From positions 1,567,465 through 1,631,464 of the forward strand of contig CP070761.1 in NCBI GenBank assembly GCA_020348985.1: a stretch of 64,000 nt of DNA. Direction: 5' to 3'. The notes under the pieces were generated by a model. It did no database searches, was not told the DNA's origin, and saw only the letters and a list, made by a program, of their open reading frames with translations. This document shows, piece after piece, positions 34,896 through 57,873 of the stretch. The stretch comes from Candidatus Thorarchaeota archaeon. GTDB lineage: Archaea; Asgardarchaeota; Thorarchaeia; Thorarchaeales; Thorarchaeaceae. Each line of letters begins with the position of its first letter. The first letter of the stretch is position 1. The position numbers and the translations under genes are program-made.

Positions 34896-35000
34896 ATGAC
34901 TTCCTTCACACTCCTTGTTTCTTGATTCAGAAGCAGCATGAGTACCAGAAAGTCTAAAATGCCAAAACTTGAGCTTCGTTCATCGGTGTGCGCGTGGAAA

Positions 35001-35708
35001 ATGGGAGTCAGAAGACTTGCTGTTCTAACTTTGTTGCTCATGATCTTGTTGGTTAATACGAGTGGCACTGTCGCGTGCAAGCTACAGACTTCTCCGAATG
35101 AATCGCACGCGGCGAATGCGATTTGGCTCGAGTTATCAGACACATCGATTGGGATTGTTGGCGCGAGAGTAAACTTGACAGTCTGGTTGAACACCTCGAT
35201 GACCAGTTATGCATGGCAAGTGATATTGCACTTGAATTCAACCTACTTCAATGTCACAAAAGCTGGTTACACTGACGGAAATAGAAGTGCATTCTTCTCG
35301 GACCATTCTTCGATGTCAGTCTCTCCAGTGGTCAATAATGAAGTGGGCGTTGTTCTCTGTGGAGAGACTTTGCTTGGCGTGGATGAGAGGGAGCCAGGTT
35401 TTGGGAGCCTGCTATGGGTTGAGCTGAATCTCACGACAATGACACCACAAAGTCACCTCGACTTCAGCTTATCACAACCCTACGGAATCGATACTTTTGT
35501 ACTGAATCCGTACTCCGAGACTATTCCGATGGATATTGTCGAAGGAGCAACGATATCTGTTGGAGTTGATACCGTAACCACAACCACCACTACAACGACT
35601 ACCACGACGCCTATGGTTGACACAATGACAGTACTCGTTGTCGTGGGTGGCGCGATTGCGGTATGTGCTCTGTTAATCGCTCGAAGAAGGAGGGATTCAG
35701 ATGAATAG
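35001..35708 (+). CDS. Cohesin-like domain protein with Thr-rich linker and C-terminal TM anchor
   Basis: Signal peptide; beta-sandwich VNLTVWLN...YAWQVILHLNSTYFNV...GFGSLLWVEL matches the archaeal cohesin pattern; poly-Thr linker; TM plus RRRR. Confidence 0.65.
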   Translation: MGVRRLAVLTLLLMILLVNTSGTVACKLQTSPNESHAANAIWLELSDTSIGIVGARVNLTVWLNTSMTSYAWQVILHLNSTYFNVTKAGYTDGNRSAFFSDHSSMSVSPVVNNEVGVVLCGETLLGVDEREPGFGSLLWVELNLTTMTPQSHLDFSLSQPYGIDTFVLNPYSETIPMDIVEGATISVGVDTVTTTTTTTTTTTPMVDTMTVLVVVGGAIAVCALLIARRRRDSDE

Positions 35709-38451: not shown

Positions 38452-38478
38452 CAAATGCTGTGATCCTCTGTAGCTTGA

Positions 38479-38619
38479 TGCCTTGCTCCTGACTATCTTA
38501 GGATAATCATTCTTATGGGTGGCCTTGCAGCAATTGGGGTTGTGCTTGGAGTGAGGAAAGCCAGGACGCGCAGGAGACCGAGTTCCAAGATTCGTGGACT
38601 GCAAGAAGAGCTCTTGTGA
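38479..38619 (+). pseudogene. Orphan C-terminal TM-anchor remnant similar to the tails of the two giant paralogs
   Basis: CLAPDYLRIIILMGGLAAIGVVLGVRKARTRRRPSSKIRGLQEELL vs APPDYFMLALLLGGIGFVAVIVVVGRKKRKPGYKMRMDIVDQLL. Confidence 0.55.
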
Positions 38620-38694
38620 GGATGTGGACAAACGAAGATTCCCGGTCACGAGGCGTCTAGGAGCTGGTCAATGACATCCGTTCAGGCACAGTCG

Positions 38695-41600
38695 TCATGA
38701 GCTGTCCAGCAACTGGTCGACGATGTCCATCCTCATCTTGTATCCAGGTTTCCGCTTCTTCCTCCCGACCACAACAATGACTGCGACGAATCCTATACCT
38801 CCAAGCAGAAGCGCAAGCATGAAGTAGTCAGGCGGAGCAACGTCGATTGCGATTAGCTGGCCAGAAACTCCGAACAGCGAAAGGTGAGTGACTTGTGCCC
38901 ATATACAGCCTGCATAACTCTCACCATATATCTCAACATTTGTGGTGTTCTGACCGAGTGAGATTACCCAGTCCAGGTCCTCTGAGAGCTTGATCCATTG
39001 TTCATCTTCAGTATCGTAGTAGTAGATGCTCAATGAGGTTTCGTTTATGTCGCCCAAGTCACCTAGCTGTCCATCATTAGTAAGGTCAAGGTCAGAGACT
39101 CTGTAATAGATTTGAATCAGAGCAGACTCGAAGACATCTTGAGCTGTATCGTATAGAGTGATAGTCACATCCAGATACTTGTGCAAGGACACTTCACCCT
39201 CAACTAGACCCGTGGAATATACCAACTCGTGTGGTGTTGTGGATGCATCATACTTCACTATCTGAACACTTGGTCTAGCAAGTCCACTTAGTTGGACCAA
39301 GAGAGTAGCATCTAGTGTTTTTAGAGTGTCAATCTCGTTAATCAAGAAACTATAATGATACGTTTCATTATCAGTGATTACGGACTTTTGATAGTCCAAC
39401 GCTATCATATTGGGTAGTATCGTGAAGTTTCTACCTCTTAGGATTTGCAAAACTGAGTAGACATCCTCTGGGAATGCTTGAGAGAGCATTACTACTGTCT
39501 GGGGATTTGACCAAACACCATATCTCGTAGCTATCTCATGAGAATCGGGTTCCATCATATCGGTCAGAACACTGCCAGTATCACCTAGAAGATCGTAGAC
39601 CAATCCTCCTACTGTAGAACTCTCAGACTCCGGCCTGCCAATAAGGACAATGTATTGTGAGTCACTATAGAGCGAAGTTAGGTCACCAATTGAAACAATG
39701 GTTACGTCTGCATAATCTCTGAGTTTTTCTGCAAACAGGATTGTGTCATTGTAGTCCTCTGGGTCATGTGCGAGAATTATCGGACCCCTCCAGGGGCTAA
39801 ATGTGTCAGGATCCTCATTATCAGGAACACCATCGAAATCTGAATCAACATTCCATGGATTGCTGCCCCATTCCAACTCGACACCATCCAGAATACCATC
39901 CCCGTCTGTATCATTGTTCAATGCATCTAACCAATAGGCGACCTCAAGACTGTCTGATACGCCATCACTATCAGAATCACTGTTTAGGGGATTGGTGCCA
40001 ATGAACCATTCATAACTGTCACTTAGTCCATCACTATCGCTATCTCCCCCTAGAGGATTCGTACTCCTGCTGTATTCATCTCCATCCAGAGAAAGGTCAC
40101 CATCAGAATCTGCATGAAGTAGACTAGTGTTGTACTGGTACTCTAAAGCATCACTTGCGCCATCATAGTCGCTGTCAGCGCTGAGAGGATTTGAATTAAG
40201 CAGAAACTCCTCTAAGTCTGATAGAGTATCAAAATCTGAATCCGCCATTGCTGGGTTACTCCCAAAGGTCATTTCTAACCCATCACCCAGGCTGTCACCA
40301 TCTGAATCCCAGAGTGTCAAGCTAGATCCAGATGATGATTGCATGTAAGAAGCACTTAGTGTCGATGGTGCGAGGTGCGGACTAAACGTAGGCGGGATAT
40401 ATGTTTCACCGGGATTGTTTGCTTTCCACCATTCTTGGTGGTCAGAAACGCCATCCAAATCTGTATCTGAAGTGCTAGGATTGGACCCAAGTGAGAATTC
40501 AAGGAAATCATCCAGACCATCTAGGTCCGAGTCATTCATCAAATGGTTGCTGTGCACTCTGAAGGTTTCTTGTCCGTGAGTGAAGTTGACAGAGATAACC
40601 CAACCATCGATTTCCTGAATGTTTGTCAATCCATCGTTGTCCCAATCTGGATTCGTATCTAGTAGTAGTTCAGACGACAAAGTAACATTTTGCGAGAACT
40701 TCCAAATCCTTGAGGTTGATGGAGTACCAAGATCAATCCAATCCAAGACATAGATACTCTTGTCAGGAGCTACCGCCAACTGATGGGTCTCACTACCAAG
40801 AACATATGTTCCAGTTGTGAAATTCGTTATTCCATTTCCGTAGAACCGAAATGCAGTATCCTCAACTCCATTCGGATAGAATTTCTGGACACACATTCCA
40901 TCTGAGAGTTCACCTAGAACATACACGTAACCATCTGAGTCCACATCGACATCAAGAATTGAAACGTAGTTCTCAGACAGTGTGCCTAGGAATGCGCCAT
41001 CCGAGAGTCTCATCTTGATGACTCTATCCGGTTTACTATAGGAGAAATGCCTATCACATAGATAGACAATACCGTATTTCTCGTCTACTGCCATGCTTGT
41101 AATCCAATCAGTTTCATCATCTGCTGGACCTCTATTGCCATACGTCGCCAAAACAGAACCATCAGAGCCGTATTTTCGAAATCCACCTATCTGGTCATCC
41201 CCTGTATCTCTCACTGCTGCATAGATAACTCCATCATCACCAAAATCAAGATCCGTTATGTTCTTGTTGAGTATTGGACTCCAGCTCCCAGGATTCGTTA
41301 TTGTACCATTCAAGTTGAATCTGAAAATAGGACTGCTGAATAGCGGACTAACCTGAGTGTAAAGCCAGTCATTTGAGTCATCTACAGCCATTGCCACAAG
41401 TCGAGCGCCAGAAGGTAGAAAGGTCATGTTGTTGAAGACTGACTCTTGTGGAAGAGTAACCCGCGTGAGATTTGAATCATACTTCCGAATTGTGTTGTTA
41501 CCACTAACTGAGTCTAGTATTCCGTTTGCATATACATAGCCATACTCGTCCACACAAATGTCGCTTATCTTGTTGTTAGTTCCGTCCATTGTCCAGTCAA

Positions 41601-44600
41601 CGAACTTGCCCTCATAGTATACTCCTGATCCGTACCAAACATATGCTGAATCAAGAATCCCATCTCCATTGGTGTCATTTGATCTTGGGTTCGTATTACT
41701 TTCGTACTCTGTAAAGTCATCAAGACCATCTCCATCTGTTTCATTAAGGAGCGGATTCGAAGTCACATGAGTGGAGAAGGGAAGAGAAGTATTACCCATG
41801 TAATCGAAGCTTATAATCCAACCAGTGATTTCTAGATAGTCGCTTAACCCATCTTGATCTGTATCGATATTATTTGGATCTGTGCCACAGACTAGTTCGA
41901 ATTTGTCGTTCAACTTGTCATTGTCTGTATCGATACTTGCTGGATCAGTTCCAATTTCAATCTCATATTTATCATTGAGTCCATCTGAGTCGGTGTCGTA
42001 TCTCCATATGTTAGAGACTCCCATAGATGCTTCTCTGGTGTTGTTAAGTCCATCAACATCAAAGTCGTTCGCAATAAGACCCCATTTGAGAAACTCGTCA
42101 AAGGAAGCAGGAAACACATCAAAGTAGATTTGAGTCAGGAAAGGGGAATACGCCGAGGAATAACTAGGAAGAACTGAGATAGTTGGATCATAATGCCAAC
42201 AATCCCAAGTGTCGAGCCATTCGTGATACCAGACACTCCAAGTTTTGTAGAAGGAGTACAATCCGATTGTAACTGGGTAATTTGCCATAGCTATGGGTGC
42301 GCCAATGCTCTGAGTCTGAGACCACTCTTGTTGAATCCAAGCAGGATTACTTTGCGTAGCAGTCCCTAAATATGTCCAAATCGGATCCAGATCTGGCCAT
42401 GTCGGCATGTACGTCTGAATATTAGTTGTGTTGTGAGCAAAATTAAACGCCTGCCAATAGAAGTGATTTAGATCGCTAGTGGCAATCCAAAAATGAGGCA
42501 TGCACCAACTATCCAGAAAATACGTGTTGAGATATGTGCCATATGCACTTATTCGTCCTAGTAGTCTACATGTTAAGAGAATTCCGTCACCAGCCGTCAG
42601 ACCATTGTTCTCGAAATCCATGAAGGTTGGATCTATGTCCAGAATTCTGCTAGACGGCCACATCGCAACAATTTGGTGAGGGCGTCCATAAATAGCGTTG
42701 ATGAAGAACTCCTTGATTGCATCACTCACACCGATATTGTCCTTTCCACACCATCCTAGGATCTCATCGATCAACATGAAAATTCCAGCCAAACCAAACG
42801 TGAAGAACGTAGCCCAGGTGGTCAACAATGGTGCGATGATAACATCCCAAAGAAAGGTAACAATACCCCATATTGCTCCATACTCTTGTCCGCCGGCTCC
42901 ACCGATAGCATCTGCGATTTCCCAAGCGGCCCAGATTGTTAATCCAAGAGCGATTGCAGCAACAACTATCTCAATAATAACATCGAATTTGCCAATCTTA
43001 CTCACCCAACCTGACGCTTTGCTCGCACCTTTTGCCACCTTCGCCATTTGATGTAGAGTTCTCACTCTATGGAATTTCCTACCAGCTTCTGTGAATGAAT
43101 CGAAAATGCGCTGCAAACCGCGGAAATAAGAAGGAACATCTGGCAGAAGCAAGAAGGACTCAATACCTAAATCCACCCATTGTCCAACATTTTGCGAGAC
43201 GAATTCCATGTCTGATATTCGATCTATTGGGAATCCTCGTGGGGTTCCGTCGACTACTGTCGCACTCCGTTCAGTAGAAAACCACATCAGCGTCATTGTG
43301 ACTATCCAATACGTGACTTCATCATCTAGACCCCAACTAACAATATGGTCAACGATTTCAGTTATAGAAAGTGCTTCATAGCTGGTCGTGTTATAGTAAT
43401 TCATCTTCAGTGTCTTCATGACGGATGGGGCAAGGCTTGTCAGATCTATACTACTGTGACCATCCGTTCCGAATGAAACACCTGACATGTCTACAACTCT
43501 TGAATGGTCCTCAATAATCACAGTAATAGGAAGAATCATGTCCTGAGATATTGAACTCAATGCAGAGGGTAACATATCACTACCCAGCGAAGATAACGCG
43601 TCGAATTGAGATTGGAATGTCCTTACATCGCTTTCAACGGTTATATTGTTGTCCATGAGAAGTGGTTGCAGGTCTGAAACTGTGTTTGAAGAGTTTTTCA
43701 TGTAATAATAGTCAAACAGCAATGAAGCTCCAATCGTCATGTCAGTATTTGTGCTATTATAGAAGATACCAATTTCTGAACTTGTGCTCTCTTCCAATTT
43801 AAGTCCAGTAAATTTGAACGGTTCAGTGTAGGTGACCAGTTCAATCAGATTAGGAATCGGCTCAAGAGACTCTATTTCAAAGATAGATAATAGCGCAATA
43901 TCAGGAGTTGAAACTAGATTGCCCCTTCCATCCATTGCAACGTAGTTCCCCAAATAATCGGTCAAATAGCATGCCGGCCACCAGGCAATCCTTTGGTTGA
44001 ACGTTTCTCTCTCGCCGATTGTAGAGCTGTTGAAAAAGAGTGTACCATTGTCTGAAACTGATAGATAATTCCCATTAATCAGTTTTAGAGCAACCTCACT
44101 TTCTGATAGATAACACAACTGAAGAGCACCTTGAATTCCCTCACTAGCTGTAACTGATGCAACACCTTCGTTACCGACACTAAGATACTTCCAATTCTGC
44201 CTGAACAAGAGAGCATTGGGGATGAAGTCTGTATAGCCATGAACGCTCCACACTAATTCGGTCTGGAATGTGACACTCGTTGAAGCTAGACCTGGGTAGT
44301 AAACAATACCACTGAATGCTACAACTTCGCCATTGTCAATTACTGGAGAAAGACGGAGCCGCATTCCAGAAGAGGTTGGGACGATTCCTTGCTCTTGTAG
44401 AGCATCCTCACTTGGGATTGTGTCAGTAATAATCTCAAGATAGGGGATGAGGATTATGTCGTCTTTGGAATTGTCCAAGTCCGTCATTGTACTCTCGTTG
44501 TCCCAGTCTGGCCAATCCCAGGTCTGGTATAGTAACCTGAGATGCAATGGGTCCTCGGGTACAATCTGGAACTCCGCATAGAGCGGCATTGAGTTCGTGT

Positions 44601-45192
44601 TTACTACAATTGAAAACTTATCATTCACCTCTGAATACGCAAACGGTGAAACATCAAATGCATCGTTAACACCGTCGCCATCATTGTCAAAGTCCCATCC
44701 ATTCTTAATTCCATCATTGTCAGAATCCACATGTACTCCATCTGGAACGCCGTCACAGTCTGTATCAACTTCAAATGAATCACAAAGGCCATCATCATTT
44801 GAATCGGGATTGCGGGGGTCCAAGTCATTGTATACCTCAAAATCGTCAGTTAGGAGATCAACATCCGTATCATTGCTTTGTGGATTAGTGCCTATGACAG
44901 CTTCAACAAGGTCAGGTAATGAATCTGCATCAGAATCGGTAAGATTAGCAGCCGGAGTGACCTCAAGCAATGATATTACAAGTTCTTTGAGAGAACCTGG
45001 CGTTCGAGGAGGATCACCTTCAGCGACCCTTCTTACAAGTTGATTTGGATTCGTGATTACAGGGGGAGAATCACGGGAATCCCGGACTGGAATGTATTGA
45101 TTGTCTGTGGCCCGCTTGATATCACATCCAACGAACAAAAATATGAAAATCAAGCATGCAATGGCGAGCTTTAATCTTCTCAGGTCTCTCAC
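38695..45192 (-). CDS. Giant multidomain surface protein A (Ca-binding DxDxDG repeats, fascin-like insert, hydrophobic helical region, NHL propeller, GPS-like motif, TM anchor)
   Basis: 2165-aa ORF; signal peptide ending FVGC; many D-x-D-x-D-G-L-x-D-x-x-E repeats; NHL-like DICVDEYGYVY/MAVDEKYGIVY; VTHLSLF then TM. Confidence 0.85.
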   Translation of the reverse strand: MRDLRRLKLAIACLIFIFLFVGCDIKRATDNQYIPVRDSRDSPPVITNPNQLVRRVAEGDPPRTPGSLKELVISLLEVTPAANLTDSDADSLPDLVEAVIGTNPQSNDTDVDLLTDDFEVYNDLDPRNPDSNDDGLCDSFEVDTDCDGVPDGVHVDSDNDGIKNGWDFDNDGDGVNDAFDVSPFAYSEVNDKFSIVVNTNSMPLYAEFQIVPEDPLHLRLLYQTWDWPDWDNESTMTDLDNSKDDIILIPYLEIITDTIPSEDALQEQGIVPTSSGMRLRLSPVIDNGEVVAFSGIVYYPGLASTSVTFQTELVWSVHGYTDFIPNALLFRQNWKYLSVGNEGVASVTASEGIQGALQLCYLSESEVALKLINGNYLSVSDNGTLFFNSSTIGERETFNQRIAWWPACYLTDYLGNYVAMDGRGNLVSTPDIALLSIFEIESLEPIPNLIELVTYTEPFKFTGLKLEESTSSEIGIFYNSTNTDMTIGASLLFDYYYMKNSSNTVSDLQPLLMDNNITVESDVRTFQSQFDALSSLGSDMLPSALSSISQDMILPITVIIEDHSRVVDMSGVSFGTDGHSSIDLTSLAPSVMKTLKMNYYNTTSYEALSITEIVDHIVSWGLDDEVTYWIVTMTLMWFSTERSATVVDGTPRGFPIDRISDMEFVSQNVGQWVDLGIESFLLLPDVPSYFRGLQRIFDSFTEAGRKFHRVRTLHQMAKVAKGASKASGWVSKIGKFDVIIEIVVAAIALGLTIWAAWEIADAIGGAGGQEYGAIWGIVTFLWDVIIAPLLTTWATFFTFGLAGIFMLIDEILGWCGKDNIGVSDAIKEFFINAIYGRPHQIVAMWPSSRILDIDPTFMDFENNGLTAGDGILLTCRLLGRISAYGTYLNTYFLDSWCMPHFWIATSDLNHFYWQAFNFAHNTTNIQTYMPTWPDLDPIWTYLGTATQSNPAWIQQEWSQTQSIGAPIAMANYPVTIGLYSFYKTWSVWYHEWLDTWDCWHYDPTISVLPSYSSAYSPFLTQIYFDVFPASFDEFLKWGLIANDFDVDGLNNTREASMGVSNIWRYDTDSDGLNDKYEIEIGTDPASIDTDNDKLNDKFELVCGTDPNNIDTDQDGLSDYLEITGWIISFDYMGNTSLPFSTHVTSNPLLNETDGDGLDDFTEYESNTNPRSNDTNGDGILDSAYVWYGSGVYYEGKFVDWTMDGTNNKISDICVDEYGYVYANGILDSVSGNNTIRKYDSNLTRVTLPQESVFNNMTFLPSGARLVAMAVDDSNDWLYTQVSPLFSSPIFRFNLNGTITNPGSWSPILNKNITDLDFGDDGVIYAAVRDTGDDQIGGFRKYGSDGSVLATYGNRGPADDETDWITSMAVDEKYGIVYLCDRHFSYSKPDRVIKMRLSDGAFLGTLSENYVSILDVDVDSDGYVYVLGELSDGMCVQKFYPNGVEDTAFRFYGNGITNFTTGTYVLGSETHQLAVAPDKSIYVLDWIDLGTPSTSRIWKFSQNVTLSSELLLDTNPDWDNDGLTNIQEIDGWVISVNFTHGQETFRVHSNHLMNDSDLDGLDDFLEFSLGSNPSTSDTDLDGVSDHQEWWKANNPGETYIPPTFSPHLAPSTLSASYMQSSSGSSLTLWDSDGDSLGDGLEMTFGSNPAMADSDFDTLSDLEEFLLNSNPLSADSDYDGASDALEYQYNTSLLHADSDGDLSLDGDEYSRSTNPLGGDSDSDGLSDSYEWFIGTNPLNSDSDSDGVSDSLEVAYWLDALNNDTDGDGILDGVELEWGSNPWNVDSDFDGVPDNEDPDTFSPWRGPIILAHDPEDYNDTILFAEKLRDYADVTIVSIGDLTSLYSDSQYIVLIGRPESESSTVGGLVYDLLGDTGSVLTDMMEPDSHEIATRYGVWSNPQTVVMLSQAFPEDVYSVLQILRGRNFTILPNMIALDYQKSVITDNETYHYSFLINEIDTLKTLDATLLVQLSGLARPSVQIVKYDASTTPHELVYSTGLVEGEVSLHKYLDVTITLYDTAQDVFESALIQIYYRVSDLDLTNDGQLGDLGDINETSLSIYYYDTEDEQWIKLSEDLDWVISLGQNTTNVEIYGESYAGCIWAQVTHLSLFGVSGQLIAIDVAPPDYFMLALLLGGIGFVAVIVVVGRKKRKPGYKMRMDIVDQLLDSS

Positions 45193-45292
45193 CTACTATT
45201 TTCCATGAGTGAAAAGGGAACCACGCGAACGAGATGCGAGTAGCACCGCATCTTAAATCATCTTCGAATTTTTCAGCCATGCAGTGATGAGG

Positions 45293-48200
45293 TCATGAGC
45301 TGTCGAGCAGTTGGTCGACGATGTCCATCTTGACCTTACGTCCAATCGTTCGACCCTTCCTTCTCCTTGCTACCGCAACCACCGCTGCTAGTCCTGCCGC
45401 TCCAAATAGCAGCACATACAAAAGGTAATTAGGCGGCTCCACTGGGATTCCGATTAGCTGTCCTGCAACTGCGAATAGCGAGAGATGCGTTACTCGCGCC
45501 CAGACGAATCCTGCATATCTTTCTCCATAGAGCTCCACGTTTGTCGTGTTCTGGCCAAGGTCGACGACCCAGTCCAAGTCCTCTGAGAGCTTGATCCATT
45601 CACCAGCTGATGTATCATAGTAATACAGGCAAAGTGAGGTCTCATTTATGTCTCCCATGTCACCCAATTGGCTATCACCAGTGAGGTCAATGTCGGACTC
45701 TCTGTAGTAGATTATGATCCATGCGGAATCGAACACGTTGAAAGCCGTATCATACAGAGTCAGACCAACATCCAAATACCTGCCTAGAGATACATCGTTT
45801 TCTGCCAGACCCGTTGCATGTGTCAGCTGATTCGGAGTTGTGGTCTCATTGTATCGGCTGATTGCTATTGCAGGTCGGGCTCGCCCGCTAAGTACGATGA
45901 TCACTGACGCATCCGTTGCCTTGACCGTGTCAATTTCGTTGACAAGGGCGGCGTATGCTACGGTCTGATTATCAACTACTGCGTAGGAGTTGAATTCTAT
46001 CATGGTTCGATCAGACAGGATCGATAAATTCCATCCTCTCAGTATGGTGAGAACTGGATACACATCTGTGGAAAAGGCAGAGGACATGATGACAACTGTC
46101 TGTGGATCGTTCCAGTAGCCATATCTTGTTGCCACCTCGTGGGAGTTGTTCTCCATCATATCATCAAGAACGCTACCCGTGTCATCAAGCATGTCGTACG
46201 TAAGCCGTTCGAGACCGTAGCTGCTCGGATCAGGCCGACCTACGAGCACAATGTACTGGTGATCTGTATAGCCGTCAAGAAACTCCTGGAGTGTGACTAC
46301 GGTTACGTCGACGTGCTCGCTCAATTCTTGCACAAACTCGAGCGTGTGGGTTGTCGGATCTTCACCATAGACCAGAATGACTTGGCCATCCCATGTAGTG
46401 AATGTGTCAGGGTCGATGCTATCGGGGATGCCATCCCAGTCCGTATCGTTGCTTAGTGGATTGCTACCGTATTGCAATTCAAGCCCGTCTGGAATTCCGT
46501 CGAAATCTGTATCGTTGTTCAGCGGGTCCAGGAACAATGAAAGCTCCACGTCGTCATCAGCGCCATCTCCATCTGAATCAGCCAACGTTGGATTCAATGA
46601 CAAGAATAATTCAAACCCGTCTAGAAGATTATCTCCGTCGCTATCACCTTCACTCACATTGCTTCCCACGTGGTACTCCGTACCATCAAGACCGAGATCG
46701 CCATCTGAGTCCGGGTCAAGAAGGCTCGAGTTGCCATCGAATTCCTGACCGTCCAGAGCTCCATCTCCATCAGAGTCGTTGCTTCTCGGATTAGAATTCA
46801 GCAAGAACTCGGTCATATCTGAAAGACCATCTGCGTCAGAGTCAGGATTGACAGGAGAACTGCCGTAAGTGAGCTCAATGCTATCGCTAAGCAAGTCTCC
46901 GTCTGTATCCCACATGGTCAGATTGGGTCCAGCCGGAGTCCATTGCATGTGGTTCGAATAGATTGAAGAAGAAACGACGAAGGCACTCTGAATCGGTGGA
47001 ACATAGATTTCGCCTGGATGTGTTGTCAGCCACCACTCTTCGAAATCGGACACACCATCTTCGTCAGTATCGGGAGAACGAGGATTAGATCCCAGTGTAA
47101 ACTCCAGAGTATCGTTGAGTCCGTCGCAATCAGTGTCTTTCACCATCGGATCACTTGTGACATTGAAGGTTGTTCTTGCGCTAGCGAAGTCAACCGTGAT
47201 TTCCCAACCGTCCGTCTCCTGAATGTTGGTTAATCCGTCATCATCCCAGTCTGGATCGTTTTCGGGTATCACTTCTGAAGAATACTGGAAATTCTGCGAG
47301 AATCTCCAAATCCTTGATGTCGAGGGGTCTCCGGCACTGAGAAACGCGATAACGTAAATACTCCCGTCGGGCGATGTGCATAACCTATTTGCACCAGTGA
47401 GAGTGTGCGTGCCATTTCCATTGAATCGGAAATCCACATCTTCGAAGCCGCCAGGGGCATATCTTCTGACATGAGATCCGAGAGTAGAATCGGAAGACAT
47501 CGCATACAGATATCCACTATCATCAACCTCCAAATCTTGCATGTAGACACTGTATCCAAACTCTAGGATATTGACGTGGGACCCATCAGACATGTCCAAT
47601 ACATGCAGCCTGAAACCCTTAGAATATGATATTTCCTGGTCAAACACGTAGATGAGTCCATGCATCTCGTCTACTGCAATACCCCAAGGACTATCAAACT
47701 CCTCTGTGCCCGGACCGACTACGCCCCAAGAATTCAGGAGGGCTCCGCTTGAGTTATACTTCTTGACAATCGGAGTACTATATCCCAAATGATAGATATC
47801 CCCATTCTGACCGATAACAAATTGCTCTCCGCTAGCGGTGGAGATTGGAGTCCAGGAATCAGGGTTGATTGCTGAACCGTCCAAGTTGAACCTGTAGAGT
47901 GCATTGGTTGTAGAATACGCCTTGTGAATGTACATCCAATCATTGCTATCGTCAATACCAATGTACACAGGCATTTCGGAATTTGACCAGCACGTCAAGT
48001 TGACAAGATATGAACCGGTCGGCTGTTCAATAATGTTAAAGGATGGGTCATACTTTCTTACTGTTCCATTGTCGTTGGGCAATCCAAGGAATCCTGATGC
48101 ATACAGATATCCGTCTTCATCAGTACAGACGTCATACACATACTGCTGATGATGAGCAGTATAGTCAGGCATTATCCAGTCGATTGAGCCTTCATAGGCC

Positions 48201-51200
48201 GCAGTTGCGCTCATTCTGTAAGCTGGCATGTCCGGATACCCATCGCCGTTAGTATCATTCGAGTTGGGGTTTGTGTTGCCAAGGTACTCTTGGAGATCGT
48301 CAATTCCATCCCCGTCTGAATCATTGTACTTGGGATCCGAAGTCACGCGTATTTGAAATGGCAATGTCACGTTGCCCAGATAGTCGAAATCTATGACCCA
48401 GCCGGATGTCTCTCTGAAATCATTTAGTCCATCTTCATCCGAATCTGCGGATGTCGCATTCGTGGAATACACGTGTTCATACCAATCACTGACTCCATCT
48501 CCATCAGAGTCCGCGAGAGTTGGATCCAATCCCTTGTCAATCTCATACTTATCGTTCAGTTGATCTCCATCAGTATCGTAGTCCCATTGTGACGTTCCAT
48601 AGGCAGCCTCCAGTGCGGCATCGAGACCGTCACCATCACTGTCGACAAGTGTCATGGGAGAGAAATCTAGAAAGCCATTAAGTGTCGTCGGGAAGACATC
48701 GAAGTAGAGCCAAGTGTTATGGGCATATCCAGTCCCGTTGATGAGTTCTTCAGATTCCTCTATAGGGGATGGGTCGCCTCCAAATAGCTTGCTCACATGA
48801 TACCAAAAGTTCCTGCGCTGCGTCACGAGCCAGATCTTGTAGAGTGAACATATCGAGACATCTACAGGGTAATTTGACATAGCCAGCGTAGGTCTGAGGG
48901 AGGCTGAAAGCTCGAATTCGCACGAAACCTCCCGCCACCAAGTCATGTCATAGGCAGGATCCTGAAACGCATTATAGATTGCAGAAGGTATCCAGTCCAA
49001 TTGGAGTGCATGAATCCATGAGGCTGTGTCAGGGCTCCAACCCCACCATGGACGCCATCTAGGTGGGCCAGTCATGATGATCAAAGGCTTACACCATGAA
49101 AGCGACAAATAGTGATCCTCATCTACTTCCCACAAGTCGTTCTTCCAATCCACCGCTCTCACTCTTCCTTCAACTTTGACAGAGAGATGTATCCAATCGC
49201 CAGCATTGAGACCATTGTTGTCAGAGAACGTAGGAGTCGGACCTTCCGTGATTACAGAATACGGGGCCATCTGCAAGGCCAATTGAGGTTGACCATAGAA
49301 TGCCAGCGTCGCATACTCTGCAAGTTTCTGTGTCCAGCCATATTTGATGTCGGTAATGATGAACACTATGAGAAGCGCCCATCCAAGTACGGGAACAAAG
49401 GCCATGGCAAACTCAATCACTCCTATCATGTACACGCCGATGAAAGTAGAGACAAGGGCGTACGTCAAACCGATGACCCTTCCTCTTTCTCCGCCTATAG
49501 CGTTGGCTATCGATACACCAGCCCAAATGGACATTCCAATATCAATAGCAATCTCCAACACTATCAAAGCCTTTCCAAAGTGCTTGAAGTACTTGAGGCT
49601 CTTCAGAGAGGCTTGAGCAGCCTTGACTGTCTTTGAGATCCTGTTTATCAGATTCGCTACCTTTCCCATTTGATTGAACCATTCAGCCTTCAACACGTAG
49701 CAAACTCGGGAGATTGACCAGCCGCTTCTTTTTGCCGCTAGGTAGTAATCACTCATGATGTTCTTCACTGAGAGAAACCTCAGACCTGCGATCTTCTTCC
49801 CGGCTAATATGGCGAGGTCAAAACCTCCAAGTCCAAGCTCAAGTACTAACTGAGCGGTATTGAGAGCCTCATCTGTAGGGGGAAAGACCAACTCCTCGGC
49901 GCCTATCTTAGTGATGGACGTGTAACCTGAGTCCCAGCCTATCATGAGCGCAATCAGGTTCTTCTTCGCTTCTTCTGGCCATGCCCAACCTAGAATCTCT
50001 ATTGTGACGCCCCATGGAGTAAGGCCGACATTTGTCGATGTGTTATACCAGTTCACATTCAGGACCTTGGTCGTAACAAGTGGTTCACTGGCCGTGTCTA
50101 GCGAGCACGAATCCAGCATGACATATGAGCCGCCGAGCACGTCATACAGATCAGCAGTCTTCGAATATCCCTCAATTGCAATAGATAGTGGAAGGTTCAT
50201 GTTCTCAGGGAGACCCGCCAGCGCGGACGGTATGATTACATTGCTGAGAGTCTCTATTGCCAAGTACCTGTCTCTCACTGTGGTTCTCAAACCTGTTACA
50301 TTGACATTGTAGTGGTCGAGAACTCCAGGAATGTCATCAACATTGATTGTAGAGTTGTACAAGAACTCAGAAGTCATGACCAACTGCGCAGCCGCTATTT
50401 CAGTGACATTTTCGCTAAAGAACACACCTGCGAGAGCACCACTACATTCCTCAACTGAGAGTCCAGTGAACATGAAGGGCTCTTTGTACGTAACCAGAGA
50501 GGACGGTGTCGTCGCGATTCTATCGTGCTTCGTGACGGAGAGATATTCTGAGGGGTGAGTTGCTAGAGCTCCTTCTGGGCTTACTGTCACATACTCTCCG
50601 TTGGGGGCAACTAGCCTTCTTGCACTCGCGTGCCATATAAAGGTCTCATCATCACCGATATCGATTGAATCGAACAAGAACGTGTTGGAGTCTTCATACG
50701 ACAGGTAGAGGCCATTTACGAATCTAATCGCGACTTGATCATGGGATCCAGCTTCGCCAATCTTGACCCACTCAAGTTTGGTTGCATCAGCTGCCGTGAC
50801 ATTGCCGACTGCAATCATGTTGTTGCCAATAGCAATGTAATCGTCACTGGTACCACCGGGAGGATGGAGGTTCAGTATTTGACACCTCGAATCGGACTGC
50901 CCTATGACCTCCCAATTCAATTCAGCATGAAGCGTGACGTCCAGGGGAGTTGTATTGAGGTACAAGAGCTGACCAGTGAATGCTACAATGCTGCCGAACT
51001 CGAGAACAGGGTACAATGGAACCTCCAAAACATCACCAACATGTCTGGCTCCAACTTCGTTCAGTGCTGTCTGATTCGGGAAGAATTCATCACCTATGAA
51101 TGAGAGTTCCAGAATAGGGTAGATCCGGATATCTTCTCGAGAGTAATCCAAATCTTGCATAAGACCTTCCGTGTCATATTCCCAATCCCAAGTCTGGAAG

Positions 51201-51826
51201 GTCAACTTGAGGTGGTCGGGGTTTCTCGGAATGACCTGAAAACGAATGTAAGTGGGGTCTCCAGTGGTTTGAATCGATATATCAAATCCGTCTCTGATCA
51301 CAGACTTGGCAAAAGGAGAAAGATCCGGTTGATCGTTTACTCCATCACCATCGTTATCGAAGTCCCATGCGTTTAGCACATTGTCGCCATCTAGGTCCAG
51401 AGAAGTGCAGTTGATCTCAATGTGGTCTGCAATACCATCATCATTTGAGTCGGGATTCAATGGATCTAGTCCGTTCAGTGCTTCGAAGTAGTCGAGAAGG
51501 GTATCAAAATCAGTATCATTGTTCCTGGGATCAGTTCCTATGACTGCCTCAACTGAATCGTACAACCCGTCCATGTCGAAATCGGTTTGGTTTGCTACAG
51601 GAGTCACATTCATGAGCTCAGTTACTAGGGTACTGAGGTTCACAGGGGTCCTAGGAGGTTCCTCACTCAGTGTCTTCTGTAGAAAGGGTTGACCCTCCAA
51701 CGGGGCAACTGCTCTTTCTGTATCCGGCTGACTCATCTCTGGATGGTCAACAGCATTCTTCACATCACAACCAATGAACAGGAAAATGAAAACCAGGGAA
51801 GCCAGAATATAGGACCGCTTCTTCAT
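45293..51826 (-). CDS. Giant multidomain surface protein B, tandem paralog of A
   Basis: Colinear with A; start refined to MKKRSY (AGGTGGAG RBS); FIGC; VTHLSLF; identical MDIVDQLLDSS end. Confidence 0.85.
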   Translation of the reverse strand: MKKRSYILASLVFIFLFIGCDVKNAVDHPEMSQPDTERAVAPLEGQPFLQKTLSEEPPRTPVNLSTLVTELMNVTPVANQTDFDMDGLYDSVEAVIGTDPRNNDTDFDTLLDYFEALNGLDPLNPDSNDDGIADHIEINCTSLDLDGDNVLNAWDFDNDGDGVNDQPDLSPFAKSVIRDGFDISIQTTGDPTYIRFQVIPRNPDHLKLTFQTWDWEYDTEGLMQDLDYSREDIRIYPILELSFIGDEFFPNQTALNEVGARHVGDVLEVPLYPVLEFGSIVAFTGQLLYLNTTPLDVTLHAELNWEVIGQSDSRCQILNLHPPGGTSDDYIAIGNNMIAVGNVTAADATKLEWVKIGEAGSHDQVAIRFVNGLYLSYEDSNTFLFDSIDIGDDETFIWHASARRLVAPNGEYVTVSPEGALATHPSEYLSVTKHDRIATTPSSLVTYKEPFMFTGLSVEECSGALAGVFFSENVTEIAAAQLVMTSEFLYNSTINVDDIPGVLDHYNVNVTGLRTTVRDRYLAIETLSNVIIPSALAGLPENMNLPLSIAIEGYSKTADLYDVLGGSYVMLDSCSLDTASEPLVTTKVLNVNWYNTSTNVGLTPWGVTIEILGWAWPEEAKKNLIALMIGWDSGYTSITKIGAEELVFPPTDEALNTAQLVLELGLGGFDLAILAGKKIAGLRFLSVKNIMSDYYLAAKRSGWSISRVCYVLKAEWFNQMGKVANLINRISKTVKAAQASLKSLKYFKHFGKALIVLEIAIDIGMSIWAGVSIANAIGGERGRVIGLTYALVSTFIGVYMIGVIEFAMAFVPVLGWALLIVFIITDIKYGWTQKLAEYATLAFYGQPQLALQMAPYSVITEGPTPTFSDNNGLNAGDWIHLSVKVEGRVRAVDWKNDLWEVDEDHYLSLSWCKPLIIMTGPPRWRPWWGWSPDTASWIHALQLDWIPSAIYNAFQDPAYDMTWWREVSCEFELSASLRPTLAMSNYPVDVSICSLYKIWLVTQRRNFWYHVSKLFGGDPSPIEESEELINGTGYAHNTWLYFDVFPTTLNGFLDFSPMTLVDSDGDGLDAALEAAYGTSQWDYDTDGDQLNDKYEIDKGLDPTLADSDGDGVSDWYEHVYSTNATSADSDEDGLNDFRETSGWVIDFDYLGNVTLPFQIRVTSDPKYNDSDGDGIDDLQEYLGNTNPNSNDTNGDGYPDMPAYRMSATAAYEGSIDWIMPDYTAHHQQYVYDVCTDEDGYLYASGFLGLPNDNGTVRKYDPSFNIIEQPTGSYLVNLTCWSNSEMPVYIGIDDSNDWMYIHKAYSTTNALYRFNLDGSAINPDSWTPISTASGEQFVIGQNGDIYHLGYSTPIVKKYNSSGALLNSWGVVGPGTEEFDSPWGIAVDEMHGLIYVFDQEISYSKGFRLHVLDMSDGSHVNILEFGYSVYMQDLEVDDSGYLYAMSSDSTLGSHVRRYAPGGFEDVDFRFNGNGTHTLTGANRLCTSPDGSIYVIAFLSAGDPSTSRIWRFSQNFQYSSEVIPENDPDWDDDGLTNIQETDGWEITVDFASARTTFNVTSDPMVKDTDCDGLNDTLEFTLGSNPRSPDTDEDGVSDFEEWWLTTHPGEIYVPPIQSAFVVSSSIYSNHMQWTPAGPNLTMWDTDGDLLSDSIELTYGSSPVNPDSDADGLSDMTEFLLNSNPRSNDSDGDGALDGQEFDGNSSLLDPDSDGDLGLDGTEYHVGSNVSEGDSDGDNLLDGFELFLSLNPTLADSDGDGADDDVELSLFLDPLNNDTDFDGIPDGLELQYGSNPLSNDTDWDGIPDSIDPDTFTTWDGQVILVYGEDPTTHTLEFVQELSEHVDVTVVTLQEFLDGYTDHQYIVLVGRPDPSSYGLERLTYDMLDDTGSVLDDMMENNSHEVATRYGYWNDPQTVVIMSSAFSTDVYPVLTILRGWNLSILSDRTMIEFNSYAVVDNQTVAYAALVNEIDTVKATDASVIIVLSGRARPAIAISRYNETTTPNQLTHATGLAENDVSLGRYLDVGLTLYDTAFNVFDSAWIIIYYRESDIDLTGDSQLGDMGDINETSLCLYYYDTSAGEWIKLSEDLDWVVDLGQNTTNVELYGERYAGFVWARVTHLSLFAVAGQLIGIPVEPPNYLLYVLLFGAAGLAAVVAVARRRKGRTIGRKVKMDIVDQLLDSS

Positions 51827-52104
51827 ATCGCTCCACCTTTGCCACGCCGCAGGGATAATGCATCCAAAGAGCTCCGCCTCAATTGGCAAAGGGCCTTTTA
51901 TCTTCTCTGAGGGAAACTAACCCGATTGCAATTCGCAAGCAGACGGTCCAAATGCATTGCAACCTGAAACTTCCATCGCTTGTGACGCAGGTATTCCAGA
52001 ACCTATCAGAAGTCCGGCAGCTCGACTGCGTTGAGCATCATCCTGAAAAGAAGAACCGCTAGTCAACGGTTTCCACCATCTGGTCTTCGGGAGATGAAGG
52101 ACAC

Positions 52105-57288: not shown

Positions 57289-57873
57289 ATGCCGAAGCCG
57301 AAACCTAAGACAAAGATTGAGAACGTAGTTGCGTCGGTTATCCTTAACCAGCGCTTAGACCTCGATGAGATTGCGGCTACAATGCCAAACGTCGAATTCG
57401 ACCCTGAGCAGTTCCCCGGACTTGTCTACCGTCTGAAGAAACCCAAGACAGCGACACTGATTTTTAACAGCGGTAAGATGGTGTGCACTGGGGCCAAGAG
57501 CGAGAAGGAAGCCAAGCGTGCTGTCCACAAGATTGTGAAGAACATCAAAGAGGCGGGCATCGAGATTACTGGCCGTCCTATCATTGTTGTTCAGAACATA
57601 GTTGCTAGCGCAAGCCTCGGGGCAGAGCTCAACCTCGAGTTGGCCGCAATGAAGCTCGAGAACACACTCTACGAGCCAGAGCAGTTCCCCGGTCTGATCT
57701 ACAGAATGAGAGACCCCAAGGTCGTCATTCTCCTGTTCGGTTCTGGTAAGCTTGTCATCACAGGAGCCAAGTTTGAGCCGCAGATTGACGAGGCCGCACT
57801 CAAAGTCATGGACCGTCTTCTAGAACTCGGAGTCATGAGAATTCCAGAGGGCGAAGACTGGTCAGATGACTAA
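57289..57873 (+). CDS. tbp: TATA-box-binding protein
   Basis: Two repeats IENVVAS...FDPEQFPGLVYR...LIFNSGKMVCTGAK and VQNIVAS...YEPEQFPGLIYR...LLFGSGKLVITGAK; acidic tail. Confidence 0.98.
   Translation: MPKPKPKTKIENVVASVILNQRLDLDEIAATMPNVEFDPEQFPGLVYRLKKPKTATLIFNSGKMVCTGAKSEKEAKRAVHKIVKNIKEAGIEITGRPIIVVQNIVASASLGAELNLELAAMKLENTLYEPEQFPGLIYRMRDPKVVILLFGSGKLVITGAKFEPQIDEAALKVMDRLLELGVMRIPEGEDWSDD

Follow-up and report, generated by a model that had tools for sequence, protein, structure and literature searches.

Two tandem giant surface proteins of an Asgard archaeon that are probably force-sensitive tethers, not toxins

A pair of genes that we call A and B encodes giant surface proteins that are probably force-sensitive tethers and not toxins. 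The explanation that we lean towards is that both are N-glycosylated, Ca2+-stiffened adhesion proteins with a GAIN-like, self-cutting, force-sensitive tether. Our computed results are the gene structure, the predicted folds, where the motif lies and how well it is conserved, how the family is distributed, and the sequon and charge pattern; cleavage, adhesion, membrane topology and force-gating we infer.

The gene pair and its host

The genes are colinear on the minus strand of the window (the whole 64,000-nucleotide stretch of contig CP070761.1 that was analyzed) and lie 100 bp apart (Table 1). The full reading frame of A, 45293..51889, has a TTG at its upstream end (51889), and P0001 residue numbers are counted from there (+21); the ATG at 51826 agrees with the MKK(R) N-termini of homologues. 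The original prediction described two colinear paralogs of about 2,170 aa, and we found every domain that it listed, in the listed order, with no immunity-like gene between the copies. Its Asgard origin for the pair is also supported: a TBP gene at 57289-57873 marks the host as archaeal, and the best homologues of A and B carry the name Thorarchaeota. Near-identical short contigs in sediment metagenomes (2 studies) cover both genes.

Table 1. Positions of the genes and features in the window. Residues are those of the named protein; for A they follow P0001 numbering.
Feature	Positions	Strand	Residues and basis
Gene A	45293..51826	-	2,177 aa from ATG at 51826; recorded as P0008
A signal/anchor, lipobox-like FIGC end	51767..51826	-	after hydrophobic N-terminus
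A fascin/FRG1-type beta-trefoil, inserted in beta-sandwich	50513..50890	-	334-459; model m1c58116fb8ab, fascin match
A helical hydrophobic block	49295..49873	-	673-865
A first candidate PA-type Ca unit, E..GW.I...TS.P...D.D.DG	48305..48412	-	1160-1195
A six-bladed NHL/SBBP-type beta-propeller	47270..48172	-	~1240-1540; sub-threshold NHL, DUF5122
A predicted GAIN-B/MAIN-type beta-sandwich	45452..46039	-	1951-2146; placed by aligning to B
A H-L-S	45479..45487	-	2135-2137
A C-terminal TM helix and basic tail, MDIVDQLLDSS end	45296..45433	-	
A-B spacer	45193..45292	-	100 bp; no ORF, no immunity-like gene
Gene B	38695..45192	-	2,165 aa, GTG start; P0002 = P0005 on record
B signal/anchor, lipobox-like FVGC end	45121..45192	-	after hydrophobic N-terminus
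B beta-trefoil insert	43858..44232	-	~321-445; weak FRG1/Fascin Pfam hits, alignment with A
B helical hydrophobic block	42703..43230	-	~655-830; basic loop 676-730, helices 731-812
B TSP3 repeats and first candidate PA-type Ca unit	41608..42060	-	1045-1195; sub-cut-off PF03495, TSP3_bac
B beta-propeller	40693..41604	-	~1197-1500
B flavodoxin-like alpha/beta domain	39430..39792	-	1801-1921; model md74ba3ed9a15
B predicted GAIN-B/MAIN-type beta-sandwich	38851..39438	-	1919-2114; Foldseek, VIA
B H-L-S, predicted self-cleavage site between L and S	38878..38886	-	2103-2105; turn before last strand
B C-terminal TM helix and basic tail, MDIVDQLLDSS end	38698..38835	-	TM helix 2120-2146

A predicted GAIN-like domain beside the anchor

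The model of the last extracellular domain of B (pLDDT 87.9) matched the GAIN domain of BAI3 (4dlo) with a Foldseek probability of 1.0 and E 4.6e-6. With VIA the same comparison gave Z 9.7 (rmsd 3.6 Å, 147 residues), which is moderately above the background of this aligner, where the best Z is typically 7-8 without a clear Foldseek match. The best PDB matches were the GAIN domains of BAI3, CD97, BAI2, CELSR1 and latrophilin, along with the related ZU5 and FIIND folds. Searches of Pfam and PDB sequences did not connect the domain to GAIN, GPS or ZU5 at the sequence level, and it is the predicted fold together with the motif that supports the GAIN assignment. In the model the motif, T-H-L-S, is found at residues 313-316, with strand 306-312 on one side and strand 317-324 on the other, and residue 331 is the first of the TM helix, 16 residues past H-L-S. 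This fold and motif position support the claim of the original prediction that the proteins are cleavable. The motif Ser is kept in 40 of 43 members and the His in 31 of 43, and 43 of the 58 motifs scored have an H-x-S triplet. Roughly one member in four has E, R or Q in place of the His (T-E-L-S in P0006, the nearest orthologue of B; R-L-S in the two tandem copies of G164), so self-cleavage cannot be essential to the family.

The C-terminal end also bears on a different reading, a mechanosensory receptor like Notch, aGPCRs or RsgI. The ectodomain would stay in place via the central bundle described below, and force that parts the chain at the GAIN-like site would free or expose a fragment made of the TM helix and tail, which would signal inward through the MDIVDQLLDSS tail or, in Hel/Loki-type homologues, through a cytoplasmic DUF4332 or helix-hairpin-helix domain. 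In Asgard-type members 6-16 residues separate the GAIN-like strand and the TM helix, as in aGPCRs, but methanogen-type members have 77-300 residues between motif and helix, and tails of 4-19 residues. Four relatives (P0024, P0029, P0020 and P0026) have tails of 95-358 aa with DUF4332 (E 1e-21) or HHH_5, whereas the tail of A and B has just about 20 residues, although its last 11 are the same in A, B and P0007 even though synonymous sites are saturated. A resident bundle would rule out simple shedding, which suits a receptor. However, no downstream partner or site-2 protease was found linked to A and B, and a preprint on microbial GAIN-like domains (bioRxiv 10.64898/2026.05.12.724683) found that C-terminal fragments in microbes had no signaling role. 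We think that a receptor is rather unlikely.

Calcium repeats, lectin-like inserts and propeller

The lipobox-like Cys was present in just 3 of 73 family members and is specific to the lineage of A and B. We read the FQ..P..P.HL...QTWDW motif directly in both proteins. TSP3_bac matched B with 39.1 bits and A with 20.1 bits, and partial NCBIfam TSP3-repeat matches to the CglD/MtsD adhesins had E 1e-18 to 1e-28. The insert that the original prediction called fascin-like is a solid fascin-type beta-trefoil (A against fascin, VIA Z 17.1, rmsd 2.2 Å, 117 residues; family profile E 3.4e-23 against fascin and 2e-12 against CBM92) and is probably a glycan-binding module. Homologues carry ricin-B and C-type lectin inserts, which vary between members. 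The NHL repeat is sub-threshold in A and B (18.3 and 12.7 bits, cut-off 20) and stands out in homologues (PF01436 in P0025, E 1e-11), some of which also have SBBP or faint TEN_NHL matches. Trefoil, propeller and lectin inserts agree with the adhesin-like character that had been proposed.

Units of the form E..GW.I...TS.P...D.D.DG were found in A at 1160-1195 and 1558-1590 (P0001) and in B at 1118-1160 and 1527-1559. Because they occur twice per chain, one on each side of the propeller, they look like a structural Ca module and not a toxin core. Their likeness to the Ca-binding domain of anthrax PA is weakly supported by sequence. PF03495 matches 28 of 50 family members, all below the Pfam cut-off (best E 4e-5; B 17.8 bits, cut-off 25), and a profile search of the PDB placed C2-II, PA and Vip1 among its best hits, with E 0.035-0.35. 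Over the full module, the unit D.D.DG..D..E..G[WY].[IV] ... [ST]S[DN]P ... D.D can be aligned to C2-II residues 183-251. The domain predicted to be Rossmann-like has a flavodoxin-like alpha/beta fold and no specific relative (Z 6-7 against MoaB, CheY and PTS-IIB folds).

The internal hydrophobic block

In A the block opens with helix a, which is semi-hydrophobic; a K/R-rich loop (696-773) follows, and then come the hydrophobic helices b-d (775-850, P0001). This order recurs in diverse family members. Helix a is weakly hydrophobic, weakest in B, so a 4-pass topology is uncertain. There are 35 N-glycosylation sequons in A (16.6 expected) and 30 in B (18.3 expected). Across 73 members they are about 2-fold enriched on either side of the block, which, with the signal/anchor, the TSP3 repeats and the C-terminal TM helix, bears out the predicted surface display. 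Around the block, from -150 to +50, sequons fall to 0.05-0.27 per 100 aa. The 50 residues N-terminal to it have 13.9% K/R and 5.9% D/E, while the rest of the protein is acidic, and this segment is the sole net-basic, sequon-free stretch. We believe that a resident membrane bundle describes the block better than a hidden pore-former does, and if so, free release of the ectodomain is doubtful, as a cleaved ectodomain would stay on the cell.

This signature speaks against the released effector of the original prediction, in which a hydrophobic helical hairpin of the shed ectodomain would enter a target membrane in the way of colicin, VasX or translocators. Such an attack could make use of the continuous hydrophobic stretch of about 44 residues, with amphipathic helices at its flanks, in an otherwise extracellular protein, but the basic segment beside the helices fits a resident topology. 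Protein-language-model neighbors of residues 495-1090 include VasX_N (40% of members; 0.80) and T3SS HrpK1 clusters (0.77), which we treat as leads only, and a PA14-like lead (0.86) was not confirmed by Pfam or PDB profile search. Some bacterial MAIN proteins carry toxins and a PA-type Ca unit is present here, yet Pfam scans gave no binary-toxin pore-forming domain, and a toxin domain, an immunity gene and a secretion partner were all looked for and not found. Orthologue pairs diverge evenly along their whole length, without the hypervariable tip expected in an arms race (between B and P0006 the propeller, ~1197-1500, is the most divergent part). Membrane attack is improbable in our judgment.

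Divergence of the copies and spread of the family

A and B are 41% identical over their full length (BLASTP). Sliding identity is 48-62% in the N-terminal Ca-repeat region, 17-38% at residues ~230-1040, 45-53% at 1040-1210, about 35% in the propeller and 40-77% from residue 1500 to the C-terminal end, so divergence is clearly non-uniform, with similar termini and repeats around a more divergent center as originally described. Monophyly of A and B was rejected for the central region (p-AU 2.8e-70), and the two are ancient paralogues. The variable core goes back to two ancient subfamilies and not to an exchange of cassettes.

The family consists of uncharacterized archaeal proteins of about 2,100-2,400 aa that have the domain architecture in common over their full length, with members in Thor-, Sif-, Hel- and Lokiarchaeia-type Asgards, Methanosarcinales and Thermoplasmatota. 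The C-terminal domain is common to 44 full-length relatives (E 1e-26 to 1e-136), and a search with the central region returned 231 cluster representatives at E<=1e-3 and 95 at E<=1e-30, mostly of 2,000-2,500 aa. An accessory nature is supported because the family is patchy: it occurs in 13 of 76 same-family genomes, with 1-5 copies per genome, and was missing from both same-genus genomes (98% and 88% complete). Large size, acidity, glycosylation and a membrane anchor, all traits of archaeal S-layer proteins, would also fit a core envelope or S-layer protein with neither adhesive nor regulated function, but this distribution and the differing lectin inserts make that reading highly improbable. 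No S-layer fold was among the structure matches, and the central region, with about 600 residues lacking a fold assignment, matched no known enzyme or S-layer fold.

Comparison with known systems

The closest system is the MAIN (Microbial Autoproteolysis INducing) domain, which is GAIN-like, cut within H-F-S between F and S, and leaves products that stay associated (Brogan & Rudner 2026, bioRxiv 10.64898/2026.05.12.724683). MAIN domains tether large adhesion or enzyme ectodomains beside the anchor; B. subtilis YfkN is an example, and archaeal members exist (same preprint). As in A and B, a GAIN-B-type sandwich ends a very large ectodomain, H-x-S lies in the turn that leads into the last strand, and lectin, NHL, TSP3 and Binary_toxB-like modules lie upstream, combinations that also appear in the preprint tables. 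The A/B family was not found in the part of these tables that was searched, where the four M. psychrophilus entries listed are pectate-lyase types. Cleavage of A and B is predicted, and their anchor is a TM helix 16 residues past the domain, followed by a conserved tail in the cytoplasm (relatives have long tails of HhH/DUF4332 type), whereas the anchor of MAIN proteins is of the sortase, SLH or wall type. The A/B ectodomain is also divided by a second hydrophobic block, an internal one.

Eukaryotic GAIN proteins (aGPCRs, polycystin-1) have the subdomain-B fold of B (Z 9.7, 8.8 and 7.3 for BAI3 4dlo, latrophilin 4dlq and CD97), H-L-S/T at the matching topological place directly ahead of a TM helix, and a large adhesive ectodomain with lectin and Ca-binding modules. 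However, A and B have a flavodoxin-like domain in place of helical subdomain A, no GPS disulfides, one TM helix and no 7TM/11TM body, and no detectable sequence similarity. Anthrax PA and clostridial binary toxin B components have a Ca-binding domain 1' (PF03495) that the candidate Ca unit of A and B resembles at sub-cut-off scores, but their furin-type site, pore-forming domain 2 and domains 3/4 are missing from A and B. Long TSP3 runs are found in CglD and MtsD of Myxococcus and in thrombospondin/teneurin-type proteins, and teneurins also have an NHL-type propeller. This likeness is confined to the repeats (85-98 bits, equivalog cut-offs 400-800), and A and B lack a YD shell as well as any VWA or integrin-like domain.

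Polymorphic toxins of the Rhs/CDI/MafB type, which the original prediction had invoked, are also giant tandem surface proteins with one region that differs strongly between copies. Nothing that we found supports this identity: A and B are most conserved at the C-terminus, which is a membrane anchor, and a toxin tip, an immunity gene and Rhs/YD or haemagglutinin repeats are all missing. Divergence between orthologues is even, and A and B are paralogues of ancient origin.

A proposed tether model for A and B

In the tether model that we favor, each chain would start with a signal/anchor with its lipobox-like Cys, followed by a first ectodomain of TSP3 Ca repeats, a beta-sandwich bearing the fascin/CBM92-type trefoil, and an alpha/beta domain. 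Three or four hydrophobic helices and the K/R-rich loop would then form the resident membrane bundle, with the loop in the cytoplasm. The second ectodomain would comprise a beta domain, TSP3 repeats, two PA-type Ca units around the six-bladed propeller and the flavodoxin-like domain, leading to the GAIN-B/MAIN-type sandwich with H-L-S, the C-terminal TM helix and the short conserved tail. The lectin and propeller modules may bind glycans or neighboring cells; no conserved partner gene was seen, which counts against the model. The GAIN-like domain would cut itself between Leu and Ser via an N-O acyl shift, and the last beta-strand would hold the halves together. A pulling force could then part them and uncouple the ectodomain from the C-terminal anchor and tail, and the outcome for the cell may be slackening, partial shedding or a signal.

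The tandem gene pair

We conclude that A and B, the two tandem paralogous genes on the minus strand, encode accessory, multi-copy, giant, Ca-dependent putative surface adhesion proteins with a juxtamembrane module of the GAIN/MAIN type. Read from its ATG, A starts with MKKRSY, as its relatives do. Over their full length the two proteins are 41% identical, and all of the motifs named in the original prediction are found in both, in the order it stated. An archaeal host had also been proposed, and the presence of a TBP gene in the window and nearest relatives named Thorarchaeota agree with that.

The genome (G000) is one 3.16-Mb contig and A and B are its only full-length family copies. It is a single contig yet 86% complete by marker genes, and these markers may be poorly suited to the lineage. 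Both genes are covered by near-identical short, low-depth sediment-metagenome contigs from two studies. Among the matches listed, none of these short contigs spans the A-B spacer.

Features of the A/B locus (positions in the window)
Feature	Position	Strand	Description
Gene A ORF	45293-51889	minus	ATG at 51826 gives 2,177 aa, the form on record
Gene B ORF	38695-45192	minus	2,165 aa
Lipobox-like Cys, A	51767-51778	minus	F-[IV]-G-C
Lipobox-like Cys, B	45124-45135	minus	F-[IV]-G-C
C-terminal 11 residues, A	45296-45328	minus	MDIVDQLLDSS
C-terminal 11 residues, B	38698-38730	minus	MDIVDQLLDSS
Relic 1	38646-38681	minus	DVIDQLLDAS, then stop; 14-50 nt past B's stop
Relic 2	~38470-38600	plus	APDYLRIIILMGGLAAIGVVLGVRKARTRRRP...ELL, then stop
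Two genes convergent with B	34938-38451	plus	256-aa and 916-aa proteins
TBP gene	57289-57873		

Only 3 of the 73 family members have the lipobox-like Cys. In relatives this position is A, S, T, V or L and is followed by a conserved D-V-K-x-A-x-D-H-P-E-M, so lipid anchoring would be a lineage-specific addition. At the other end, the last 11 residues are identical in A, B and another Thorarchaeota family member (P0007), and their coding sequences in A and B have three synonymous differences. Conservation of this acidic di-leucine tail suggests a cytoplasmic binding partner.

One of the two genes convergent with B encodes a 256-aa protein that combines a cohesin-like beta domain with a poly-Thr linker and a TM/RRRR anchor. 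The other gene, which overlaps it by 8 nt, encodes a secreted protein of 916 aa; this has a Trp-rich beta C-terminal half and a dockerin-type motif (Dockerin_1 E 0.001, below the cut-off). Otherwise neither protein had a Pfam or NCBIfam match. Gene B and the dockerin gene are separated by 243 bp, which hold two relics of the giants' C-terminal anchor. Relic 1 is in a different frame from B and differs from B's tail at synonymous positions, and there are further stop codons between relic 2 and the stop of the dockerin gene.

A predicted GAIN/MAIN-type module next to the membrane

We modelled residues 1790-2165 of B with AlphaFold from an alignment of 43 sequences. The model (pLDDT 87.9) has a flavodoxin-like alpha/beta domain, a beta-sandwich and a TM helix. 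When the sandwich was searched against the PDB with Foldseek, the best match was the GAIN domain of BAI3 (E 4.6e-6, probability 1.0), and the next GAIN-domain matches were CD97, BAI2, CELSR1, latrophilin and GPR110. With VIA the sandwich aligned to BAI3 (4dlo 692-866) at Z 9.7 and rmsd 3.6 A over 147 residues, and to the related self-cleaving folds ZU5 and NLRP1 FIIND at Z 8.9 and Z 8.4. As modelled, the C-terminal sandwich of B is a GAIN-B-type fold.

The T-H-L-S of B is at model residues 313-316, in a four-residue turn between the last two strands (306-312 and 317-324), and both A and B have an H-x-S/T motif in the turn before the last beta-strand. The C-terminal TM helix begins 16 residues beyond the H-L-S turn, and the GAIN-B-type domain sits between the large ectodomain and the cell-surface anchor. 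The motif Ser is nearly invariant (40 of 43 members), while the His is found in 31 of 43 and is E, R or Q elsewhere. The original prediction had called the proteins cleavable, and the modelled GAIN-B-type fold together with the position of the H-L-S turn makes this well founded as a prediction.

At loci L015 (G164:C25) and L014 the His is replaced across sublineages with the Ser retained: both tandem copies in genome G164 have R-L-S, and B's orthologue P0006 has E-L-S instead of H-L-S. Members that lack the motif His, including this nearest orthologue of B, are probably uncleaved. A number of adhesion GPCRs are likewise uncleaved.

There was no Pfam match to GPS, GAIN or ZU5 even at E<=10, and neither a single-sequence nor a family-profile search of PDB sequences found GAIN chains. 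Eukaryotic GAIN domains have a helical subdomain A and a Cys-rich GPS signature, whereas in the A/B family the sandwich is preceded by a flavodoxin-like alpha/beta fold and there is no GPS that Pfam can detect. The family is like the microbial MAIN (Microbial Autoproteolysis INducing) domains in having no sequence-level match to GAIN, as MAIN domains are also without strong sequence similarity to it (Brogan & Rudner 2026, bioRxiv 10.64898/2026.05.12.724683). MAIN domains are GAIN-like, cleave H-F-S just before the Ser with the products remaining associated, and tether large adhesion or enzyme ectodomains (bioRxiv 10.64898/2026.05.12.724683). If our model is right, the A/B family adds to the known MAIN domains an architecture that is anchored in the membrane and has a cytoplasmic tail.

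Ectodomain modules

The fascin/FRG1-type beta-trefoil is a firm assignment from both the model and the profiles. It aligned to fascin with VIA at Z 17.1 and rmsd 2.2 A over 117 residues, its family profile matched fascin (E 3.4e-23) and the glucan-binding CBM92 (E 2e-12), and Fascin, FRG1 and DUF7910 were above the cut-off in homologues. By profile, the NHL propeller appears clear in relatives and is below threshold in A and B (18.3 and 12.7 bits in Pfam against a cut-off of 20); the same region in aligned homologues had matches to NHL, SBBP and SGL and a faint one to TEN_NHL.

The unit E..GW.I...TS.P...D.D.DG had been compared to the Ca-binding domain of anthrax-PA-type toxins. We found the resemblance to be real, if weak. 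For PF03495 (PA/binary-toxin Ca-binding), B scored 17.8 bits against a gathering cut-off of 25, and 28 of 50 members matched at E<=0.1 (best 4e-5), all below the cut-off. A family profile of the unit against the PDB had C2-II, PA and Vip1 among its top matches (E 0.035-0.35), with the C2-II alignment spanning the entire unit; PA was absent from the single-sequence search of PDB sequences. The unit looks like a structural Ca module, with no pore-forming toxin domains alongside. Pfam found neither Binary_toxB_2 nor Binary_toxB_3 (pore-forming and oligomerisation domains 2 and 3) in A, B or four homologues; binary toxin B components and anthrax PA have pore-forming domains, whereas in A and B the Ca unit is followed by a propeller. 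For B 845-1045, the language-model neighbours were PA14/GLEYA clusters (0.86), no more than a lead, and neither Pfam nor the PDB profile search matched PA14 upstream of the unit.

About 600 further residues of the central region are confidently modelled as beta and alpha/beta domains. We searched the 903-residue central model with Foldseek against the PDB, VIA wide and the ESM Atlas, and the trefoil filled all of the match lists. These other residues, in beta-sandwich, alpha/beta, helical and post-helix beta domains, are without a fold match because the trefoil saturated every search. Language-model neighbours were VasX_N (0.80) and HrpK1 (0.77), again leads only.

Hydrophobic block and topology

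Every member has a block of 3-4 hydrophobic helices around residues 700-850. In a landmark-based profile of 73 full-length members, both flanks of this block have N-x-S/T sequons at about double the expected density, and the sequons are nearly absent from -150 to +50 residues around its most hydrophobic point. The 50 residues directly before the block are 13.9% K/R and 5.9% D/E, and this is the only net-basic part of the protein. Since the same Ca repeats occur in both large halves, we place the two halves on one side of the membrane. This is most simply explained if the chain crosses the membrane an even number of times and the basic loop is cytoplasmic, to which we give slightly better than even chances. 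Helix a, the would-be first pass, is only weakly hydrophobic, which makes this topology tentative. If the membrane bundle is right, cleavage before the Ser of H-L-S cannot free the ectodomain and would instead uncouple it from the C-terminal helix and tail.

Family and distribution

The C-terminal 366 residues as query found 44 proteins of 1,190-2,770 aa. Their named sources are Thorarchaeota, Sifarchaeia, Helarchaeota, 'Promethearchaeota', Methanolobus (including the 'ricin B lectin' of M. psychrophilus R15), Methanosarcinaceae and Thermoplasmatota. With the central 903 residues as query, exhaustive HMMER searching gave 231 cluster representatives at E<=1e-3 and 95 at E<=1e-30, mostly of 2,000-2,500 aa. 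The central and C-terminal parts occur together in all full-length members. Lectin inserts vary (ricin-B, C-type lectin), and some members have long cytoplasmic tails with DUF4332 or helix-hairpin-helix domains.

With MAG incompleteness as a caveat, we found the family in 13 of 76 genomes from the same taxonomic family, but not in the two from the same genus (98% and 88% complete). Genomes that have it carry 1-5 copies. So the homologues are not single-copy conserved structural proteins. For the same reasons of patchiness and copy number, we regard an archaeal S-layer or core envelope protein as very unlikely.

Tandem copies recur: a B-type gene with an A-clade gene in another Thorarchaeota MAG, two A-clade genes in G164, and three copies on a Hel-type contig. 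Locus L011 (a 27-kb contig of GCA_016840125.1) has three tandem members of 2,427, 2,422 and 2,381 aa with DUF4332/HHH cytoplasmic tails, and small ORFs (109-119 aa, no Pfam match) after each of the first two.

Divergence of the two copies

A polymorphic toxin or adhesin, with a conserved frame around a variable core, had been suggested from the divergence between A and B. In a sliding window of 60 columns, identity is 48-62% in the N-terminal Ca-repeat region, 17-38% at residues ~230-1040, 45-53% at residues 1040-1210, about 35% in the propeller and 40-77% in the C-terminal 660 residues, the most conserved part. The contrast between the center and the last 660 residues is therefore as described. 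The dynamics of a polymorphic toxin are not seen, as orthologue pairs diverge evenly or are fastest in the propeller. We attribute the pattern to two old subfamilies with stronger constraint on the C-terminal module.

Four-fold synonymous sites between A and B are near saturation across the entire alignment, so we take the duplication to be old. The central-region tree pairs B with P0006 (62% identity) as its sister and places A, on a long branch, with another Thorarchaeota clade. Constraining A and B to group in this region cost 191 log-likelihood units (p-AU 2.8e-70), for a constraint group that was named once a first tree was known. The C-terminal tree has poor resolution and groups A and B weakly (58/31). 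Since tests on the C-terminal data could not reject the central-region clades (p-AU 0.063 and 0.27), mosaic exchange is not demonstrated. Cassette exchange or recent gene conversion between A and B is unsupported, given this weak tree and four-fold sites that are near saturation throughout.

Other evidence also counts against a polymorphic toxin. Where a variable toxin domain would be expected, the last 660 residues are instead the best conserved and end in a TM helix and tail. The original prediction had itself seen no immunity-like gene between the copies, and an ORF scan of the window confirmed that the 100-bp spacer has no ORF. Neighbourhoods of homologues have no conserved neighbour gene and no conserved small partner. 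We think that the toxin/effector reading is a minority possibility, to be dropped unless the central helices prove to insert into foreign membranes.

Function and significance

Most likely, A and B attach the cell to glycans or partner cells in sediment in a force-sensitive manner. We also considered that the family could signal in cis, as a prokaryotic equivalent of adhesion receptors. The internal four-helix membrane bundle would hold the ectodomain on the cell, and force-driven separation before the Ser of the GAIN-like H-L-S would liberate only the C-terminal fragment of TM helix and tail. In Hel/Loki-type relatives, a liberated fragment with a helix-hairpin-helix/DUF4332 domain could act inside the cell in a Notch-like manner. 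The authors of the MAIN preprint say that they found no signalling role for the fragment that stays anchored (bioRxiv 10.64898/2026.05.12.724683), and we regard cis signalling as unlikely. If true, it would be the first non-eukaryotic GAIN-type domain wired to a cytoplasmic output, found in the archaeal lineage nearest to eukaryotes.

Whether or not they signal, we see A and B as putative adhesion proteins. Contact between Asgard archaea and partner cells is central to ideas on the origin of eukaryotes, and almost no Asgard surface proteins have been characterised. Our literature search found no paper joining 'Asgard' with 'GAIN domain' and nothing relevant on giant Asgard surface proteins. 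The family unites modules of animal adhesion receptors, namely thrombospondin-type Ca repeats, a fascin-type trefoil, an NHL propeller and a GAIN-like juxtamembrane domain, and in some relatives a cytoplasmic domain comes after the GAIN-like domain and membrane helix. As a way for archaeal cells to make force-sensitive contact, this combination of animal-type adhesion modules makes the family a concrete and testable candidate.
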